Part shown: in pieces, positions 24,751-41,774 of the stretch
How the letters are laid out: each line of letters opens with the position of its first letter
Position numbering within the stretch: position 1 is the stretch's first letter
Sequence record: MK931439.1
DNA: 43,130 nucleotides
Strand: one strand, 5' to 3'
From: Escherichia phage Sciku
Notes under the pieces: generated by a model
Databases searched by the model: none
Told to the model about the DNA's origin: nothing
Seen by the model: the letters and a program-made list of their open reading frames with translations, nothing else
Made by a program: the position numbers and the translations under genes

Positions 24751-24888
24751 CTACTCTTCGGATAACTTCTCCAGTACAAACGCCAGTTGCGCATTAGCGG
24801 CGTCTCTCTGTTGCCGTAGTCGTAGAACCTCTTCTTCGAGTTCCTCGATACGTTTTTGCAATGCCGGAATTGGGGCTATGATGTTCAT
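24751..24888 (-). CDS. small coiled-coil hypothetical protein
   Basis: 45 aa ORF whose ATG overlaps the helicase stop (ATGA); heptad-like IEELEEEVLRLRQQ. Confidence 0.3.
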   Translation of the reverse strand: MNIIAPIPALQKRIEELEEEVLRLRQQRDAANAQLAFVLEKLSEE

Positions 24889-27350
24889 TTCTTACCTCGT
24901 CTCTTCATGTAATTAAGCAATTCTTCCTGTACAGATTTCTTCTCGTCGGTGCGCGCGGCAACAACCTCATCCAGCGTGTCTTTAGCGACGATGTGATAGA
25001 GGAACACCGGGCGCTCGTGTCCAGCCTGTTTCTGACGAACAGGGCCTATGCGCTCGACAACCTGCAAATAGTGCTCGAGGTTCCATCCCTGACTTATAAA
25101 CGCCAGATGATGCCCTCCATCCTGTAAATTCAAACCATGGCCGGCTGACGCGGGATGAACACATAAGATTTCGATTTCACCACGGTTCCACGCTTCCATC
25201 TGCTTATTACCCTTAGCTCCTTTGGCAAACGCCTTAGCCTGCGGGAATCGCTTAAGTATGCGCTCCAGTTCGTGTTTAAACTGATAGGCCACCAGTAACG
25301 GCGCGCCCTGCAACTCCTCAACAATGGACTCCAGTGCGTCCAGTTTCGTGTCATGCACTTTCTCCCAGTCTTTCGTTGCTTCGCCATCTGGCCCTGATAC
25401 ATACACGGCACCGGACGCAATCTGGAGACACTTTGATGTCTTCGCTGCCGCGTTAGCGGCTTCAACTTCCCCGCTCTCGAGTTCCGCAAATAACTTCTCC
25501 TCCATATCGATGTACGCCTGACGCGCTTTCTTCGGCAGGTCTATTTCAACAGGAACGATAATCGGCGCTTCGCAACCGAACCACTCTGCAGCATCGATAG
25601 TGAGACTGATATCCTTCATCTTCTGATGAATCTCGGTATCCGCGCCCGGGCGAGCGTGATACTCACGCGCCATAGCCGATTTGCCTTTCTGTATCGAATT
25701 AAACCAGCGGTCGGTAAACGCCGTATACGAAGAACCAAGTCGCTCGCCTGCGTCTATAAACCAGTTCTGCCCCCACAAGTCTTTGAGGCCGTTTGGTGAC
25801 GGCGTACCGGTCAGGTTGATAAAACGCTTAACCTTACCAAACGCCACTTTACTAAGCGCCTTTGCTCGCTTGCTGCCACCAGAACGGCTGCGGAACGATT
25901 TAAGCTTCGTGCTCTCGTCGGCAACGATAACTGTGAAAGGCCAGTCGTCTTTGCCGTAGTAGTCAATCAGCCACTCGATAACTTCGTAGTTAGTGCACAC
26001 CACGTTAGCGTCGGACTCAAGCGCCGTGATGCGGCGCTTCTCCGAACCGGTCGCATCTACTACACGCAGGCACGGGAAACCCCAACGTGCCTGTTCCGCG
26101 GGCCACGTGCCAGACGCAACACGCAACGGGGCGAGGATTAACACGCGGTCGTCGTCATTAAGTTGCCCATTACGGAACAGGCGGTTGAGAACCCACAACG
26201 TTGAGCTTGTATTGTGCGTGACAGTGAAGTCCCCCAATAAAAACCTACTGTCACCGTCGATAGTGAAGCCGAAATAATCATCTACGCCGACCGGGGTTAT
26301 GGATTCTATACCAACGTTAAGCACGTTCTTATTAATATTACGCTTCGGTAAATTCTGGTGGCGTCCTCGCACGAAAGGTACCTCAGAAAAATCGCCAGAT
26401 ACCGACACACGGAAGTAGTCACCCCAAACATCAGTGTTTGCGCAACGCTTACGAGTTTTCTTCTTGTAAGCAGCAAAACCAAGAGAACGGCATAGATAGC
26501 AAAAATCATCAGCAAGTCGCTCGCTTACCGAAATCCAGTCAAAACCCGCTTTAGACAAATCGCAGTAACCATCACTATCCAGAAGCCCCGCCAGCAATTC
26601 TAACCGCTGTCGCCGGTCGCCGCATTTGTAACTATGCGGTATATGCTTATTGTTCAGGACACCCGCCGATTTCAGCGCGTGCGTAAACCCGTGCTTCTTA
26701 TGACCTGTGTTGCCGTAAGATATACTCCATGTAAGTCCTTCTTTTCGTATTTGCATCCCATTACGTGCTGCGTACGACTCAAGATAAGCCCTTATTTCCT
26801 TTTCGTTCTCTCCTGATGTTATGGCCCCCGACGACGAAGTACCGTCACCCAGCCATAACCCCATAAGGTACGGAGGCAATAAAGCCTCGTCCTGCTCTTT
26901 CCTTGTAAAATCGACAGGTACCCGCCAACCCTTAAGATACCCATTAGGTCCGGTTACATATTTCGGCAACTTAAGCCAGTCGCGGACGCTTATGTCGAAA
27001 ACGGTATTATCTGGCCATGAACCTTTTGCAATCCCTGTAGTAGTTCGCAGGGATAATATATGGCTTTCGTTGACCGTATACGACTCTCCTTTTCGCGGTT
27101 TAACCTCGTACATCATCTCCCGGCCTCTACCGAGAGACAGTACATTTCTAGGCGTTGAATCCGGCCCCATAAGCACGTCACCGACGATGACGTCTTCTAC
27201 TTTCTTGGTCGTACCGTCAAACATAATAACTTCCGTCCCGCGTTTCAGGCACTTGCCGCTGCCCATACTAGCCCAGATATTGCAACGTGGGTGCTGTAAC
27301 ATAAACGACGTCATTATTTTCTGGTATTCCCTGCGCCTAAATTTACTCAT
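24885..27350 (-). CDS. SNF2-family helicase precursor containing an intein
   Basis: motif I ASMGSGK|T interrupted after Lys33 by a 347-aa insert; C-terminal helicase region with GHGLNLQ; mature protein predicted 474 aa. Confidence 0.8.
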   Translation of the reverse strand: MSKFRRREYQKIMTSFMLQHPRCNIWASMGSGKCLKRGTEVIMFDGTTKKVEDVIVGDVLMGPDSTPRNVLSLGRGREMMYEVKPRKGESYTVNESHILSLRTTTGIAKGSWPDNTVFDISVRDWLKLPKYVTGPNGYLKGWRVPVDFTRKEQDEALLPPYLMGLWLGDGTSSSGAITSGENEKEIRAYLESYAARNGMQIRKEGLTWSISYGNTGHKKHGFTHALKSAGVLNNKHIPHSYKCGDRRQRLELLAGLLDSDGYCDLSKAGFDWISVSERLADDFCYLCRSLGFAAYKKKTRKRCANTDVWGDYFRVSVSGDFSEVPFVRGRHQNLPKRNINKNVLNVGIESITPVGVDDYFGFTIDGDSRFLLGDFTVTHNTSSTLWVLNRLFRNGQLNDDDRVLILAPLRVASGTWPAEQARWGFPCLRVVDATGSEKRRITALESDANVVCTNYEVIEWLIDYYGKDDWPFTVIVADESTKLKSFRSRSGGSKRAKALSKVAFGKVKRFINLTGTPSPNGLKDLWGQNWFIDAGERLGSSYTAFTDRWFNSIQKGKSAMAREYHARPGADTEIHQKMKDISLTIDAAEWFGCEAPIIVPVEIDLPKKARQAYIDMEEKLFAELESGEVEAANAAAKTSKCLQIASGAVYVSGPDGEATKDWEKVHDTKLDALESIVEELQGAPLLVAYQFKHELERILKRFPQAKAFAKGAKGNKQMEAWNRGEIEILCVHPASAGHGLNLQDGGHHLAFISQGWNLEHYLQVVERIGPVRQKQAGHERPVFLYHIVAKDTLDEVVAARTDEKKSVQEELLNYMKRRGKK
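26211..27251 (-). mobile_element. intein with LAGLIDADG homing-endonuclease domain
   Basis: begins with Cys (TGC at 27251-27249), ends His-Asn (26216-26211) before Thr +1; two LAGLIDADG motifs YLMGLWLGDGT and LLAGLLDSDGY; in frame, 1041 nt. Confidence 0.8.
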
Positions 27351-37395: not shown

Positions 37396-37426
37396 TTTTA
37401 TATCTCCTGTTTGTTTGGTGAAGCTG

Positions 37427-37455
37427 AGTATAGGATAGCGGGAATGTAAAAGCAA
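37427..37455 (-). promoter_or_regulatory. sigma70-like promoter for the leftward replication block
   Basis: minus strand: -35 TTGCTT (37455-37450), 17-nt spacer, -10 TATACT (37432-37427). Confidence 0.4.
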
Positions 37456-37502
37456 CCAAAACGCCACACAAAGTTACTAAGATACAAAAGATGCTTCAGG
37501 TA

Positions 37503-37531
37503 TTGACTTTTACTAAGAAATATGGTAAGCT
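37503..37531 (+). promoter_or_regulatory. sigma70-like promoter (copy 2 of duplicated promoter-leader unit)
   Basis: TTGACT (37503-37508), 17-nt spacer, TAAGCT (37526-37531); same architecture as 5573-5601. Confidence 0.5.
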
Positions 37532-37572
37532 CAGCCTGAGCTTGTGAAGTATGAACAAGCGACCGCGGCGCG
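37503..37572 (+). repeat. conserved about 70-bp promoter-leader block, copy 2
   Basis: near-identical to 5573-5642 with the same 38-nt core; weaker similarity continues for about 70 nt. Confidence 0.7.
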
Positions 37573-37717
37573 CGGCAGGCGAAACGAGCACGTGTAGCGT
37601 GTGGAGTGAGGCTCGCTAGCGCGTTTGGGAGGCCCCAAGTCTATTGTAATTCCAGCCTAAGTAGCTAAGTTACTGATTTGCCGTAGGTTAGAACCGCCAG
37701 CTCACTCACTCACTCTT

Positions 37718-37750
37718 GGTGCCTTCGGCACCACGTTCGTTTCGTTTCGC
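37718..37750 (+). terminator. terminator-like hairpin closing promoter-leader unit 2
   Basis: GGTGCC-TTCG-GGCACC hairpin followed by ACGTTCGTTTCGTTTCG; preceded by a (CTCA)x3 repeat. Confidence 0.4.
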
Positions 37751-37800
37751 TCGCTACCCCCCTTAAACGAAAGAATCACAACGGCAACGTAACTAATCTC

Positions 37801-37829
37801 TTGCACACCCCAACATAATAGGATACTAT
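37801..37829 (+). promoter_or_regulatory. sigma70-like promoter with AATAG-N4-CTATT operator (type B)
   Basis: -35 TTGCAC (37801-37806), 17-nt spacer, -10 TACTAT (37824-37829); palindrome AATAGgataCTATT 37817-37830. Confidence 0.5.
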
Positions 37830-37863
37830 TCACTTATCGAAACGAGACAGAGGAGTGAGGGCT

Positions 37864-38055
37864 ATGTTTAAGAAGGGTCAGTTGGTTAAATACTCCGACG
37901 ATAAACACGGCATAATTGAATTAAAATCTGCTTTATTTCCAGGAGAGTACGTAGTTACCATGCAAAATGTGAGAGGAGTAAATTCACAAATATACGTAGC
38001 GGAGGAGAACTTAAAACTAATCGGCAACAATTTTAAATTCAAAGAGGCGAAGTGA
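37864..38055 (+). CDS. small hypothetical early protein
   Basis: 63 aa from ATG 37864 with GGAG RBS; first gene after promoter 37801. Confidence 0.4.
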   Translation: MFKKGQLVKYSDDKHGIIELKSALFPGEYVVTMQNVRGVNSQIYVAEENLKLIGNNFKFKEAK

Positions 38056-38243
38056 TGGAAGAATTAATTTACGACGTATACGTCGACGGGGTTATCTCAG
38101 AAACGACAAGTAATAAAGATTACGCAATAAAGCTGTATATGTATTACGCGGCCATTGTAGGAAAGATGGTAGAAGTGCGGGAGCGAACGGCATCGAATCA
38201 TGGTGCCAGTGCCGACGACTCTGAGGGAGGTTGCCGTAAATGA
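38052..38243 (+). CDS. small hypothetical protein
   Basis: 63 aa ORF overlapping the upstream stop. Confidence 0.4.
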   Translation: MMEELIYDVYVDGVISETTSNKDYAIKLYMYYAAIVGKMVEVRERTASNHGASADDSEGGCRK

Positions 38244-38431
38244 GAATTCGTATAACTGATGTTGAACAAACATGCCCTGAGGAATACCAGGACGTTAGCC
38301 TTGCGTACTTTGGCGTCTCTGTTGGTGATGAGTTCGACGTAGGGATTAGTTGCGAATATGGGTTTGTTGTAAATCATCGCGGCGAGAATTTGTTCGTCCG
38401 TAATTCTGAATGCGAAGTTCTGGAGGACTAA
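38240..38431 (+). CDS. small hypothetical protein
   Basis: 63 aa ORF overlapping the upstream stop; acidic. Confidence 0.4.
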   Translation: MRIRITDVEQTCPEEYQDVSLAYFGVSVGDEFDVGISCEYGFVVNHRGENLFVRNSECEVLED

Positions 38432-38434
38432 GTT

Positions 38435-38596
38435 ATGAGAGAAGCGTTCGAACGGTGGGCCGTCGTTGAGGGTCTGCCGGTTAACAAGGGTTCGAAGAAA
38501 GAGTACCTGAACGTTAAGACGCGTCTCGCGTGGCGGGCGTGGAAAGCTGGTGCGCAATATCGTGCCGGTATGACAGGTGGTGTAACAGGTCAATAG
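38435..38596 (+). CDS. small hypothetical protein
   Basis: 53 aa ORF below track cutoff; GGAGGA RBS 7 nt upstream. Confidence 0.35.
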   Translation: MREAFERWAVVEGLPVNKGSKKEYLNVKTRLAWRAWKAGAQYRAGMTGGVTGQ

Positions 38597-38733
38597 TTTA
38601 GGATTTTACTGAGTGACTTACGCTGCTACACAGCAGCGTATCATTTTTCTCATTTTTGTCCTATTTCACCAAACGCAACAATCGAATCGACTATTGCAGG
38701 AGATGCAATAATACAAACACCAATAAAATTTAC

Positions 38734-38762
38734 TTGCACGCTGGGGAAGAATAGGATACTAT
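38734..38762 (+). promoter_or_regulatory. sigma70-like promoter with AATAG-N4-CTATT operator (type B)
   Basis: -35 TTGCAC (38734-38739), 17-nt spacer, -10 TACTAT (38757-38762); palindrome AATAGgataCTATT 38750-38763. Confidence 0.5.
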
Positions 38763-38885
38763 TCATTTACACAAACGAGAGGAGAGGCAGAATATGGTTA
38801 CTTTGATGATTATGGAGTTCGAAAACAGCGCTGCAACTTACCGCGACATGTTCAACGAAACGATTAGCTAAGCAGGAGAAATAAG

Positions 38886-39095
38886 ATGGTACAGAGATAC
38901 GAGATAATAAGATGGGGTCTGCCGGAGATGGCTAAGTACCCATACGGTGACTACGTTGAGTATGACAGCTATAAGGAACTGGAGGCCCGACTGGAAGAAG
39001 TCAACGCTGAGTTACAGAAATACAAAGACCAGTTCCCGGATTACGTCGAGTGCGCGAACTGCGGGTCGGTTACACATGTGGAAGGGGTGGATTGA
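38886..39095 (+). CDS. small hypothetical protein, paralog A (MVQRY family)
   Basis: 69 aa; N-terminus MVQRYEI and Y-x-EY-x-SY-x-ELEA pattern shared with the next gene. Confidence 0.45.
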   Translation: MVQRYEIIRWGLPEMAKYPYGDYVEYDSYKELEARLEEVNAELQKYKDQFPDYVECANCGSVTHVEGVD

Positions 39096-39349
39096 TGGTG
39101 CAGAGATACGACTTAACAGAATACTACGTGAGTGGTGCGGTAGATATAACGCCTGTCCCGGACTCGCATGAAGGGCGTTATGTAAGCTACGAAGACTACG
39201 CGCAACTCGAAGCTGAACTCATGAAAGTAAAAGCCGCAGCCCGTTGTCTTGTGCGAGAAGCAGGTAAGGTGTATAGCGATTATAGTGACGTTATAGCACC
39301 TGAGTTTGTAGACCAGCAAACCATACACGAACTAGGTATTCTGTTATGA
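39095..39349 (+). CDS. small hypothetical protein, paralog B (MVQRY family)
   Basis: 84 aa from ATG 39095; N-terminus MVQRYDL; same pattern as 38886-39095. Confidence 0.45.
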   Translation: MVQRYDLTEYYVSGAVDITPVPDSHEGRYVSYEDYAQLEAELMKVKAAARCLVREAGKVYSDYSDVIAPEFVDQQTIHELGILL

Positions 39350-39639
39350 GCCTTGCAACTGACATCCTGAAACGCAGCGGCCTTGCGCCGCTGTCGCCGA
39401 GAGCAAACACTCAGATATACAAGCGCCGCCGTAATACGCTGTACCCAGAGATACAGGAACGACGTAAAGCTATCCGCGCCTGTGGATTCCAGAACGGGAA
39501 GGCCGTGAATCTCGGTGAGTTTAAAACACAAGAACGCGCCGCAATCGCTAATCGACTATTTAATTACTGGAAATCGCTGGGGTACGATGATATTCCGACG
39601 AAACCCCAGAGACGACAATACATCTGGAGGCACAAATGA
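39346..39639 (+). CDS. hypothetical protein
   Basis: 97 aa basic ORF with ATGA overlaps on both sides. Confidence 0.4.
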   Translation: MSLATDILKRSGLAPLSPRANTQIYKRRRNTLYPEIQERRKAIRACGFQNGKAVNLGEFKTQERAAIANRLFNYWKSLGYDDIPTKPQRRQYIWRHK

Positions 39640-40073
39640 CTACTATCGCGTTTGACGGAAAGACGATGGCCTGTGACACCCGAGTAACCGGAGACCACAT
39701 CTACAACACAGATACCAAGATATATGAGAACGAGTTTGTTGTTATCGGTGTAGCAGGCAATGCTGAGGCTGGTATCCTTTTAGTGAAGGACGATAGTATT
39801 TTAGTGCCTAAGCACTACGATTTTGATTTCTCTGCTTTGGTGTGGGTTAAAGACATCGAAACGTTGTGCAAAGTAGAATTCTATAAATCATGGGATTGTG
39901 CACTAAGTTCGGTTATCCCTGTTGCAGATGGTTTTGCCGCCGTCGGTTCCGGTGCACCTTATGCACTGGCGGCTATGTATTTAGGTAATACGGCAACACG
40001 TGCAATTACTATAGCAGAGCAATTCGACCCTAACACCGGCGGCAATATTATTACCAAACAACTATTAGGATAA
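39636..40073 (+). CDS. HslV-like (proteasome-type Ntn-hydrolase) peptidase
   Basis: N-terminal MTTIAFDG with Thr2 as candidate nucleophile; GVAGNAEAG and AVGSGAPYALAA align with HslV GFAGGTADA and GSGGPYAQAA as recalled; 145 aa; GGAGG RBS. Confidence 0.6.
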   Translation: MTTIAFDGKTMACDTRVTGDHIYNTDTKIYENEFVVIGVAGNAEAGILLVKDDSILVPKHYDFDFSALVWVKDIETLCKVEFYKSWDCALSSVIPVADGFAAVGSGAPYALAAMYLGNTATRAITIAEQFDPNTGGNIITKQLLG

Positions 40074-40132
40074 TTCCTAACCGTGCTATCCTCCAGTTAC
40101 TGCATACTTAATACGCACCTGGAGGATTCATC

Positions 40133-40441
40133 TTGGATAAATTTACTGAAACAGTGCCGGTGTGGCTTCTCACCGCCGCACTGGTCGGTGGATTGGTCGG
40201 ACTAAGACAACATAAAAAGTCTATATCCGGTCCAGTCGACGGACTGGTATTTCTTCTCACCGGCTTCGCGTGTGCCGTTTTCGGTGCACCTCTTGCCGCT
40301 CAATGGTTCGGTATTACCGGTGAGCGCGAGATAGCTGGCCTCGGATTCATCATTGCCGTTCTCTGGATGCCTATCTATTCCCGCCTTTCTGGCATTGTCG
40401 CCGGAGAATACATCGCACGTCGCGGAGGTGGCAATGAATGA
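40133..40441 (+). CDS. putative holin
   Basis: 102 aa with several predicted transmembrane helices and a charged C-terminus; immediately upstream of the endolysin. Confidence 0.45.
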   Translation: MDKFTETVPVWLLTAALVGGLVGLRQHKKSISGPVDGLVFLLTGFACAVFGAPLAAQWFGITGEREIAGLGFIIAVLWMPIYSRLSGIVAGEYIARRGGGNE

Positions 40442-40715
40442 GTTATTCTGGTTTGGCGGTATGCTCGCAATCGGGGGCACATCGCTGTTTAACGTATACC
40501 ACCCCAGTGTAGACGATGGCCTGTTTGGTCGTGTGCTGTATATTCTCACTGCTATTGTCTGCGCTGCCGGTTGTATCCACCTGTTACAGGGCAGCGTGTC
40601 ACCAACGTTGCCGGAAACACTAATCACCCTGGTAGCGCTGCGACAGATTCGTCAATCGTGGCTGCATTACCAGTCGAAAGGAGGACATAAGCGTGTCTCG
40701 AAACATTTCAGATAA
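40434..40715 (+). CDS. membrane protein, possible second holin / antiholin
   Basis: 93 aa from ATG 40434; hydrophobic helices FWFGGMLAIGGTSLF and VLYILTAIVCAAGCIHLL; overlaps both neighbours. Confidence 0.4.
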   Translation: MNELFWFGGMLAIGGTSLFNVYHPSVDDGLFGRVLYILTAIVCAAGCIHLLQGSVSPTLPETLITLVALRQIRQSWLHYQSKGGHKRVSKHFR

Positions 40716-41196
40716 TGGATTGCAGTTCAAGAAAGCGTGGGAGAAGTTTCGTGGAACTGCGTACAAAGCCACAAAGAACGAGAAATACTGGACTATAGGC
40801 TGGGGCCATACCGGGCCAGATGTGTACGAAGGGCAGAAGATTACCGAGGGTCAGGGGTTGCTGTTACTTAACCGTGATATGCAGTGGGCGGTGAAAGCAG
40901 TAGACGAGGTGGCGCATCCATCGCTTACCCAGGCCCAGTTTGATGCCGTTGTTGACCTGGTGTTTAACGCCGGAACTGGTGTTATCGCAGCGACTACCGG
41001 AACCGGTAAGGCGCTACGGCAGGGGGACATCGCAGCCTTACGGCACAAGATGAGCCAGTTCATTAACCAGCGCAACCCTAAGACCGGTAAACTTGAACCT
41101 GTTCTGGGCCTGCGCCGTCGTGTAGCGGGTCGCCTGGCGTTGTTCGACGGTAAACCGTGGCAGGAGGCGGAGGATATCGGGAGGGCTGTTAAATGA
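40693..41196 (+). CDS. endolysin, phage lysozyme (GH24-type)
   Basis: EKFRGTAYKATKNEKYWTIGWGHTG matches the catalytic Glu ... TIG-GHTG region of lambda/P22/T4-type lysozymes; QFDAVVDLVFNAG; GTG start with AAGGAGGA RBS. Confidence 0.85.
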   Translation: MSRNISDNGLQFKKAWEKFRGTAYKATKNEKYWTIGWGHTGPDVYEGQKITEGQGLLLLNRDMQWAVKAVDEVAHPSLTQAQFDAVVDLVFNAGTGVIAATTGTGKALRQGDIAALRHKMSQFINQRNPKTGKLEPVLGLRRRVAGRLALFDGKPWQEAEDIGRAVK

Positions 41197-41325
41197 TGGA
41201 CGAATACGAAGGTGTTTAGTATTATGGTTAAGCCAAGTTTTTCGTATTTGCATACTAAGCCTTGGTAAACCTGAAGCAGCAGCCCAAGCGGTGGAGACTG
41301 CGTAGGGTTCAGAGGCTTATGACCG

Positions 41326-41356
41326 AAACCCGGACCGCGAATCCGGGTTTTATTTT
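41326..41356 (+). terminator. rho-independent terminator
   Basis: AAACCCGGA-N7-TCCGGGTTT hairpin followed by TATTTTACC. Confidence 0.55.
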
Positions 41357-41430
41357 ACCATTTGACACCTGAGACTAATCCGACGATACTTAAATCACCT
41401 CCTGCTCCATCCCTCTGCTCTCCAGTTTTA

Positions 41431-41463
41431 TCCCGGCCCTGACCCAGCCGGGATTTTTTTTTT
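41431..41463 (+). terminator. strong rho-independent terminator
   Basis: TCCCGGC-N9-GCCGGGA hairpin followed by a run of 10 T. Confidence 0.75.
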
Positions 41464-41485
41464 ATCTATTTTCTGTAATGACTAG

Positions 41486-41514
41486 TTGACTATTATTCTG
41501 ACACCAATTATATT
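41486..41514 (+). promoter_or_regulatory. sigma70-like promoter
   Basis: TTGACT (41486-41491), 17-nt spacer, TATATT (41509-41514). Confidence 0.45.
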
Positions 41515-41606
41515 TACTCCATCGACGAATCAGCTAATGTTAATATGAGCCTGGATGATTTTATGACTATTGTTGAGCAGGTTCTGGCGTTTTATGGGGA
41601 TGTAAA

Positions 41607-41774
41607 ATGAAAATCACAGATATCGAAGCATTCAAAGATGCACAACTGATGGCACGTATCGCTGTCAGTAACCTGAGCACTACTGTACCAGCGGACGCGT
41701 TCTGGTTCACCGCGATGCAGACACTGAAAGCAGCTTATGCAGGAGAGAAGAAATGGGCGAACAAGGTCAAGTAA
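41607..41774 (+). CDS. small hypothetical protein
   Basis: 55 aa ORF MKITDIEAFKDAQ...; below track cutoff; GGGGA RBS. Confidence 0.35.
   Translation: MKITDIEAFKDAQLMARIAVSNLSTTVPADAFWFTAMQTLKAAYAGEKKWANKVK

Follow-up and report, generated by a model that had tools for sequence, protein, structure and literature searches.

The stretch of DNA analysed here (the window; 43,130 nucleotides from Escherichia phage Sciku, MK931439.1) is a Shashou-like Kagunavirus genome, the 2.2 kb around the gene of interest being 99.9% identical to Escherichia phage Shashou (MK931440; Kagunavirus, Guernseyvirinae). That gene encodes a member of the PPH family of proteasome homologs and sits between a small gene and the lysis cassette:

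39346-39639, plus strand: upstream 97-aa gene (PHROG 9632), translationally coupled to PPH and kept where PPH has been lost
39626-39630, plus strand: GGAGG ribosome-binding site of the PPH gene, read directly and also in the Shashou record
39636-40073, plus strand: PPH coding sequence, stop codon included (predicted HslV/proteasome-beta-like N-terminal-threonine peptidase)
40088-40127, plus strand: hairpin in the 60-bp gap between PPH and holin (arms 40088-40096 and 40119-40127; MFE -18.4 kcal/mol, z=-3.6)
40133-41196, plus strand: lysis cassette directly downstream of PPH (PHROGs 2359, 2508 and 7; GenBank annotation)
40133-40441, plus strand: class I holin of the cassette
40434-40715, plus strand: class II holin of the cassette
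40693-41196, plus strand: endolysin of the cassette

Our reading of the sequence and of its list of open reading frames agrees with the initial annotation in placing at 39636-40073 (plus strand) a 145-aa frame with an ATG start, whose N-terminus, MTTIAFDGKTMACD, opens with Met-Thr-Thr-Ile. The GGAGG lies six bases 5′ of the ATG, and the start codon (39636-39638) and the TGA with which the upstream 97-aa gene ends (39637-39639) overlap as ATGA. There is no earlier start codon between the preceding in-frame stop and this ATG and, consequently, the protein has no possible N-terminal extension. Its upstream neighbor has a C-terminal half that looks by eye like an AP2-type DNA-binding domain, with no Pfam match at E<=0.001, and PADLOC returned no defense-system match for either the PPH protein or this neighbor.

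The exact protein is already annotated in GenBank, being 100% identical to Shashou QEA09465.1 and to the phage Sciku protein, and the PPH family itself was described in 2021, so neither is new. The Shashou coding sequence is named “ATP-dependent protease”, with a note of HHPred similarity (100 probability) to the Haemophilus influenzae ATP-dependent protease HslV, and homologs in other records are variously called “peptidase HslV family”, “protease”, “N-terminal nucleophile hydrolase domain containing protein” or “hypothetical protein”. We consider the label “ATP-dependent protease” an over-transfer from HslV, as ATP dependence has no support of its own. The Shashou genome announcement makes no mention of the PPH gene; it does already report the intein that we also saw in an 821-aa SNF2-type helicase of the window (24885-27350, minus strand), in which Hom_end_hint (aa 33-107) and LAGLIDADG_3 (aa 247-304) matches precede the SNF2 domain. 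Approximately 1 kb of the Shashou record (genes 061-065, including that for a 162-aa hypothetical protein) is absent from the window between 38596 and 38886, and the two sets of coordinates, which are equal at 37.8 kb, differ by 1027 where PPH is reached. This makes the window a close variant of Shashou and not the deposited genome.

Taken as a single sequence, the PPH protein scores poorly against curated models: 11.9 bits for Pfam Proteasome PF00227 (gathering threshold 22.4), 15.3 bits for the NCBIfam HslV equivalog TIGR03692 (cutoff 157.75) and 15.1 bits for NF003964 (cutoff 137), while a single-sequence search of the PDB found HslV chains at E values of only ~0.07-0.8, in the GSG region alone. 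These scores are uninformative about fold but show that the protein is not an HslV ortholog. Its fold placement consequently rests on profile and structure comparisons, and these are firm. Residues 1-141 match PHROG 1040 (“peptidase HslV family”) at E=1.2e-35, and a profile of 132 homologs with about 35% identity to the query matched Thermotoga maritima HslV (1e-12), BPH (5e-11) and proteasome beta5 (5e-11). Similarly, hhalign of the PPH profile against Escherichia coli HslV, the sequence of which was verified against PDB 5ji3/1e94, gave 97% probability and E=4e-11. The structure model that we kept was predicted from the 132 diverse sequences and has a pLDDT of 93; an earlier prediction from 28 close homologs (pLDDT 55) was discarded. 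The PPH protein has the four-layer alpha-beta-beta-alpha Ntn-hydrolase fold of the MEROPS T1-type proteasome/HslV superfamily. The initial annotation had named as refuting a failure of profile searches to reach the Ntn-hydrolase/HslV fold, and no such failure occurred. Hence, of the initial description “HslV-like”, the fold stands and membership of HslV proper does not.

In a profile search of 1.84 billion cluster representatives (50%-identity clusters), from the hits of which the 132 homologs were taken, the level of E<=1e-3 was reached by 4,225 proteins and that of E<=1e-10 by 280; almost all have 135-155 aa and align from their own first residue. PPH homologs occur in 348-456 phage records, and the BFVD viral structure library holds 37 phage proteins that match at E<=1e-3, all uncharacterized or named by homology. 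Fuchs et al. (2021; PMC8665760) placed PPH in group I together with HslV and BPH and described its members as proteins of ~140 residues from tailed phages and prophages, with no propeptide and none of the C-terminal S12/H5 elements, in which the beta-sheet core, Thr1/Asp17/Lys33 and the oxyanion glycine are kept and, as also in RPC, the second helix (H2) is missing. The Sciku protein has 145 aa and no C-terminal extension, which separates it from RPC, comes from a Kagunavirus genome and, judged by the model and an alignment gap, lacks H2 and retains H1, H3 and H4. As its length, phage origin, H2 loss and absent C-terminal extension all match this description, we assign it to the separate and already named PPH family and not to HslV proper. 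What our analysis adds to that of Fuchs et al. is the 4,225-cluster census, per-residue conservation, a dN/dS estimate, and the presence/absence pattern and deletion scar in Kagunavirus. Our literature search found no experimental study or published assay of any PPH member.

Two further groups of matches were encountered. In Aeromonas phage 4L372D (L008, 3001-3885) and Vibrio phage VnaP (L010, 3001-3834) a PPH-like domain forms the N-terminal half of a 277-294-aa protein, and these proteins probably correspond to the RPC group of Fuchs et al., which is related to PPH and carries a C-terminal extension of unknown fold. The existence of such extended relatives explains the 277-position length of the PHROG 1040 profile. 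Partial tblastn matches to the GSG-containing C-terminal half were also found in Microbacterium phages WaterT (MN096357, 4940-5086) and Cassita (ON526969, 5233-5454), in genes annotated “protease” near the left genome end. These may belong to a different proteasome-homolog family, such as AAH; the hosts of both phages are actinobacteria, which are not known to carry HslU.

Conservation was assessed with 143 family representatives (about 35% identity), picked on length only and not on their N-terminus. The codons for the predicted active site and its scaffold, together with a loop considered below, are as follows:

39639-39641, plus strand: Thr2, predicted nucleophile (mature Thr1), paired with HslV Thr1 by hhalign
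39675-39677, plus strand: Asp14, equivalent to Asp17 of HslV/proteasome (hhalign)
39717-39719, plus strand: Lys28, equivalent to Lys33 of HslV/proteasome (hhalign)
39747-39758, plus strand: G38-V-A-G41, equivalent to HslV G45-F-A-G48, the oxyanion-hole glycine region (hhalign)
39786-39827, plus strand: residues 51-64, loop replacing the end of HslV H1 and all of H2 (hhalign gaps and model)
39945-39953, plus strand: G104-S105-G106, equivalent to HslV G123-S124-G125 and proteasome Gly128-Ser129-Gly130 (PDB search, profile search and hhalign)
40026-40043, plus strand: D131-P-N-T134-G-G136, a D-x-x-(T/S)-G-G motif (residue counts)

The initial annotation had drawn attention to the threonine directly after Met1, and had named a lack of conservation of this position among homologs as refuting its reading. 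The position is conserved: Thr2 is Thr in 139/143 representatives and Ser in two more, and 135 of the 143 start with Met-Thr. The active-site lysine, for which a check of conservation had been suggested, is invariant (Lys28, 143/143), and Asp14 is Asp in 142/143. The glycine-rich segments that had been said to align with HslV do so by hhalign at G38-V-A-G41 (G38 in 115 of 143, or 80%, plus 21 Ala; G41 in 141) and at G104-S105-G106 (both glycines 143/143; S105 in 131, plus eight Thr). In the C-terminal motif, D131 is found in 139 and G135 in 131 of the 143, and the T134 position is Thr in 98, Ser in 28 and Cys in 17; we take D131 and T134 to be like Asp166 and Ser169 of proteasome beta subunits. 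Overall, the catalytic and scaffold positions are 92-100% conserved in these representatives, except G38 at 80%. Additionally, a dN/dS of 0.16 between the PPH genes of Shashou and phage SCS92 shows purifying selection. On these grounds the PPH protein is predicted to be a compact, probably active relative of the HslV/proteasome peptidases.

The protein is 30 residues shorter than HslV, and the alignment with E. coli HslV locates most of the difference in a single large gap that opens after residue 50 and leaves some 25 HslV residues unmatched; the other deletions are small, in the S1-S2 and S2-S3 hairpins, and the C-terminus is shorter. The only helices in the model are at 43-50, 107-115 and 120-130, and the element that follows helix 43-50 is a strand at 65-71. 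The model thus retains H3 and H4 as well as a short H1, and lacks H2.

Does the phage, or any other phage with a PPH gene, encode a partner for this peptidase? The initial annotation had noted that there is no HslU-like ATPase in the window, and indeed we found neither HslU nor any other AAA+ unfoldase in its 43,130 nt, where the encoded NTPases are the terminase, the intein-containing SNF2 helicase and a RepA-like AAA_25 helicase. The genomic context of homologs was examined by tblastn on annotated phage records, and in nine other phage lineages (Jerseyvirus, Seoulvirus jumbo phages, a Queuovirinae Vibrio phage, DSS3_MAL1, Pseudomonas Aurca01, Klebsiella Jedunavirus, Aeromonas Plateaulakevirus, Rhizobium Cuauhnahuacvirus and Vibrio VnaP) no unfoldase adjoins the PPH homolog, which is surrounded by small genes without assigned function. 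The main reading of the initial annotation, an HslV/proteasome-type peptidase that a phage encodes without its partner, is supported.

In both Kagunavirus and Jerseyvirus, PPH lies directly upstream of the holin-holin-endolysin genes in the same orientation, an adjacency that was not seen in the phage lineages examined outside the Guernseyvirinae. The hairpin in the gap has a perfect 9-bp stem, its 3′ arm holds the GGAGG ribosome-binding site of the holin (40121-40125), and no U-run follows; we found no terminator-like site between PPH and holin in the window. Kagunaviruses have the identical hairpin whether or not they carry PPH, and it thus belongs to the holin control region and not to PPH. 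In Jerseyvirus Psm105 a 13-bp hairpin of different sequence occupies the same place (-26.1 kcal/mol, z=-4.6), with GGAG in its 3′ arm and then a U-run. Such hairpins may serve to mask the holin start from translation, as terminators, or both. A hairpin was also noted in the loci L002 (3475-3505), L011 (2158-2197) and L012 (2069-2108). A promoter and terminator scan of 37400-41700 yielded about as many sites as shuffled sequence and defined no transcription unit. As a separate observation, two holins and an endolysin are annotated in 40133-41600 and no spanin, and the ~400 bp after the endolysin hold only 26-36-aa frames with no obvious lipoprotein or membrane-anchor character.

The PPH gene is dispensable and accessory. 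In Kagunavirus vB_EcoS_XY1 the holin comes directly after the 97-aa gene, and alignment reveals that ~414 nt were cleanly deleted, with the final 18 nt of PPH (K-P-L-L-G-stop) remaining as a scar, from which it follows that the gene was ancestral and then lost. The upstream 97-aa gene is present in 480 phage records (358 Salmonella, 100 Escherichia and 10 under “Kagunavirus”), and PPH in about 34 Escherichia and Kagunavirus records and in 282 Salmonella records, a count that includes some distant jumbo-phage hits. The gene is thus present in roughly 30% of Kagunavirus-type records and in at most about 80% of the Salmonella ones. Such a pattern rules out an essential morphogenetic or lysis function. 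A role as prohead or virion maturation protease was likewise rejected, because the structural module does not include the gene and viable relatives have deleted it. A paper on JSS1_004 (mBio 2025) proved irrelevant, its subject being host hslUV transcription and a T7-like kinase.

The explanation that we consider best overall, with a probability of roughly 70%, is that the PPH protein is a threonine-nucleophile peptidase that acts without a dedicated unfoldase and is a non-essential accessory in the Guernseyvirinae. Threonine is a permitted second residue for methionine aminopeptidase, and the host enzyme would remove Met1 as it does for E. coli HslV, which also has an MTTI start and was crystallized from residue 2 onward. 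The new N-terminal threonine would then offer its free alpha-amino group and, as nucleophile, its side-chain hydroxyl, assisted by Lys28 (Lys33) and Asp14 (Asp17), while the Gly38-Gly41 and Gly104-Ser105-Gly106 segments would shape the oxyanion hole and the active-site scaffold; the protein has no propeptide. In proteasome-type particles H3 and H4 make the ring-to-ring contacts, and as both are retained in the model, assembly into a ring or double ring through these surfaces is plausible. Because H2 is lost and there is no genetically linked ATPase in the phages examined, PPH most likely needs no dedicated unfoldase, which has also been proposed for BPH, and its targets would be peptides or unstructured proteins in the cytoplasm of the infected cell. 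Independence from an activator is not guaranteed, since subunits of the proteasome type usually have no activity before they assemble, and the peptidase activity of HslV by itself is very weak. In the Guernseyvirinae the gene is probably co-transcribed with the lysis cassette, and we infer that it confers a conditional fitness benefit.

Several other explanations have to be weighed against this one. The initial annotation had offered two possibilities for the missing ATPase, that the protein acts alone or that it uses host HslU. In the latter case PPH would dock on host HslU, either as a hybrid ATP-dependent protease or as a decoy that titrates HslU away from HslV. HslV is among its closest solved relatives, the MTTI N-terminus is identical to that of E. 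coli HslV and there is no phage ATPase partner; furthermore, the hosts of the PPH phages sampled are all Proteobacteria, and Proteobacteria carry HslU. In HslV, H2 is one of the “apical helices” that transmit activation, a role for which our literature search found no confirmation. The pocket between HslV subunits that receives the HslU C-terminal tail is formed by Phe54 and Phe57 of H1, Ala79/Lys80 of H2, and Gln114 (PMC6429459). In the hhalign register the PPH counterparts of F54 and F57 are the hydrophobic I47 and V50, which favors docking, but H1 is short (43-50) and H2, the source of the Ala79/Lys80 part (PMC6429459), is deleted family-wide (PMC8665760). Canonical docking is doubtful because that part of the pocket is missing. 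Moreover, PPH has no genetic linkage to hslU, its score against the HslV equivalog model is 15 bits where the cutoff is 158, BPH provides a precedent of a group-I homolog without an unfoldase (PMC8665760), and the GenBank label, having been transferred from HslV, is not evidence. We therefore disfavor the use of host HslU and regard it as unlikely. A lesser chance still is to be given to a degenerate HslV remnant that has lost catalysis and could at most regulate or serve as a structural part, which the initial annotation had suspected from the short length. The 30 missing residues and the failure of the single sequence to reach threshold with the curated models for HslV and the proteasome would fit such a remnant, but the catalytic and scaffold residues are conserved across the 143 representatives, dN/dS is 0.16, and the shortening amounts to the clean loss of one helix, plus shorter hairpins, in a confidently folded domain (pLDDT 93), a loss that is family-wide (PMC8665760) and common to thousands of members of 135-155 aa. 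Shortness is thus a trait of a large conserved family and not decay of the Sciku copy, and the conservation data have already largely refuted the idea of a remnant, leaving it with a negligible probability.

The position of the gene invites the question of whether, in the Guernseyvirinae, PPH is part of the lysis programme, for instance by acting on a holin, antiholin or host envelope factor, which it would process or degrade so as to set the time of lysis. Its place directly upstream of the holin-holin-endolysin genes in both genera, the lack of a terminator-like site between PPH and holin in the window, and the conserved hairpin that masks the holin ribosome-binding site just after the PPH stop codon could all be read in this way. 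However, in XY1, which has lost PPH, the lysis cassette is the same and the hairpin identical, the gene is absent from about 70% of Kagunavirus records, the Jerseyvirus hairpin with its U-run looks like a terminator that separates PPH from holin, and beyond the Guernseyvirinae the lineages examined do not have PPH beside lysis genes; we consider a lysis role very unlikely. An Ntn enzyme with a non-degradative activity also seems improbable, though somewhat less so than a role in lysis; the enzyme would then resemble archaeal connectase, as a ligase or transpeptidase with sequence specificity, or else be an amidohydrolase, which could have a single host or phage target or a non-protein substrate. 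Over these alternatives we prefer the threonine peptidase that acts without a dedicated unfoldase.

Where could this lead? Our analysis leaves as the point of interest the role of PPH in infection. The patchy distribution of PPH among near-identical phages is what one would expect of an accessory gene for host range or counter-defense. We can only speculate, and with little confidence, that PPH forms a self-sufficient, ATPase-free “mini-proteasome” of a new H2-less architecture directed against host immunity or stress proteins, or that it docks on HslU in a non-canonical manner and so reprograms a host AAA+ enzyme; if true, each of these would describe for the first time what a viral proteasome homolog does. 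No version of the proteasome fold smaller than PPH is known, and PPH belongs to a very large family (thousands of 50%-identity clusters), and the question that its phages pose is that of proteasome-fold activity without helix H2 and without an unfoldase. The E. coli and Salmonella phages that carry it are easily handled and have natural deletion variants, making them a convenient system in which to study the function of a viral proteasome homolog.

With respect to known systems, the catalytic beta subunits of the 20S proteasome (e.g., beta5) share with the Sciku protein the same fold and catalytic set, including the Asp166/Ser169-like D-x-x-T-G-G motif; PPH, by contrast, is phage-encoded and has no propeptide, alpha-ring partner, H2 or H5. 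BPH (beta-proteobacterial proteasome homologue; PDB 5ovs and 5ovu), which has a long acidic pore loop and forms tetradecamers (PMC5777263 and PMC8665760), has about 185-200 aa and keeps H2, relative to which PPH is cut down. Compared with HslV (ClpQ; PDB 1m4y, 1e94, 1g3i and 6kui), Sciku PPH is ~30 residues shorter, lacks H2, has shorter S1-S2 and S2-S3 hairpins and has no adjacent hslU, and near the C-terminus, where E. coli HslV reads D-I-C-I-Y-T-N, it has the proteasome-like D-x-x-T-G-G. From PPH as described by Fuchs et al. (2021) the Sciku protein shows no substantive difference, and it is matched by that published description.
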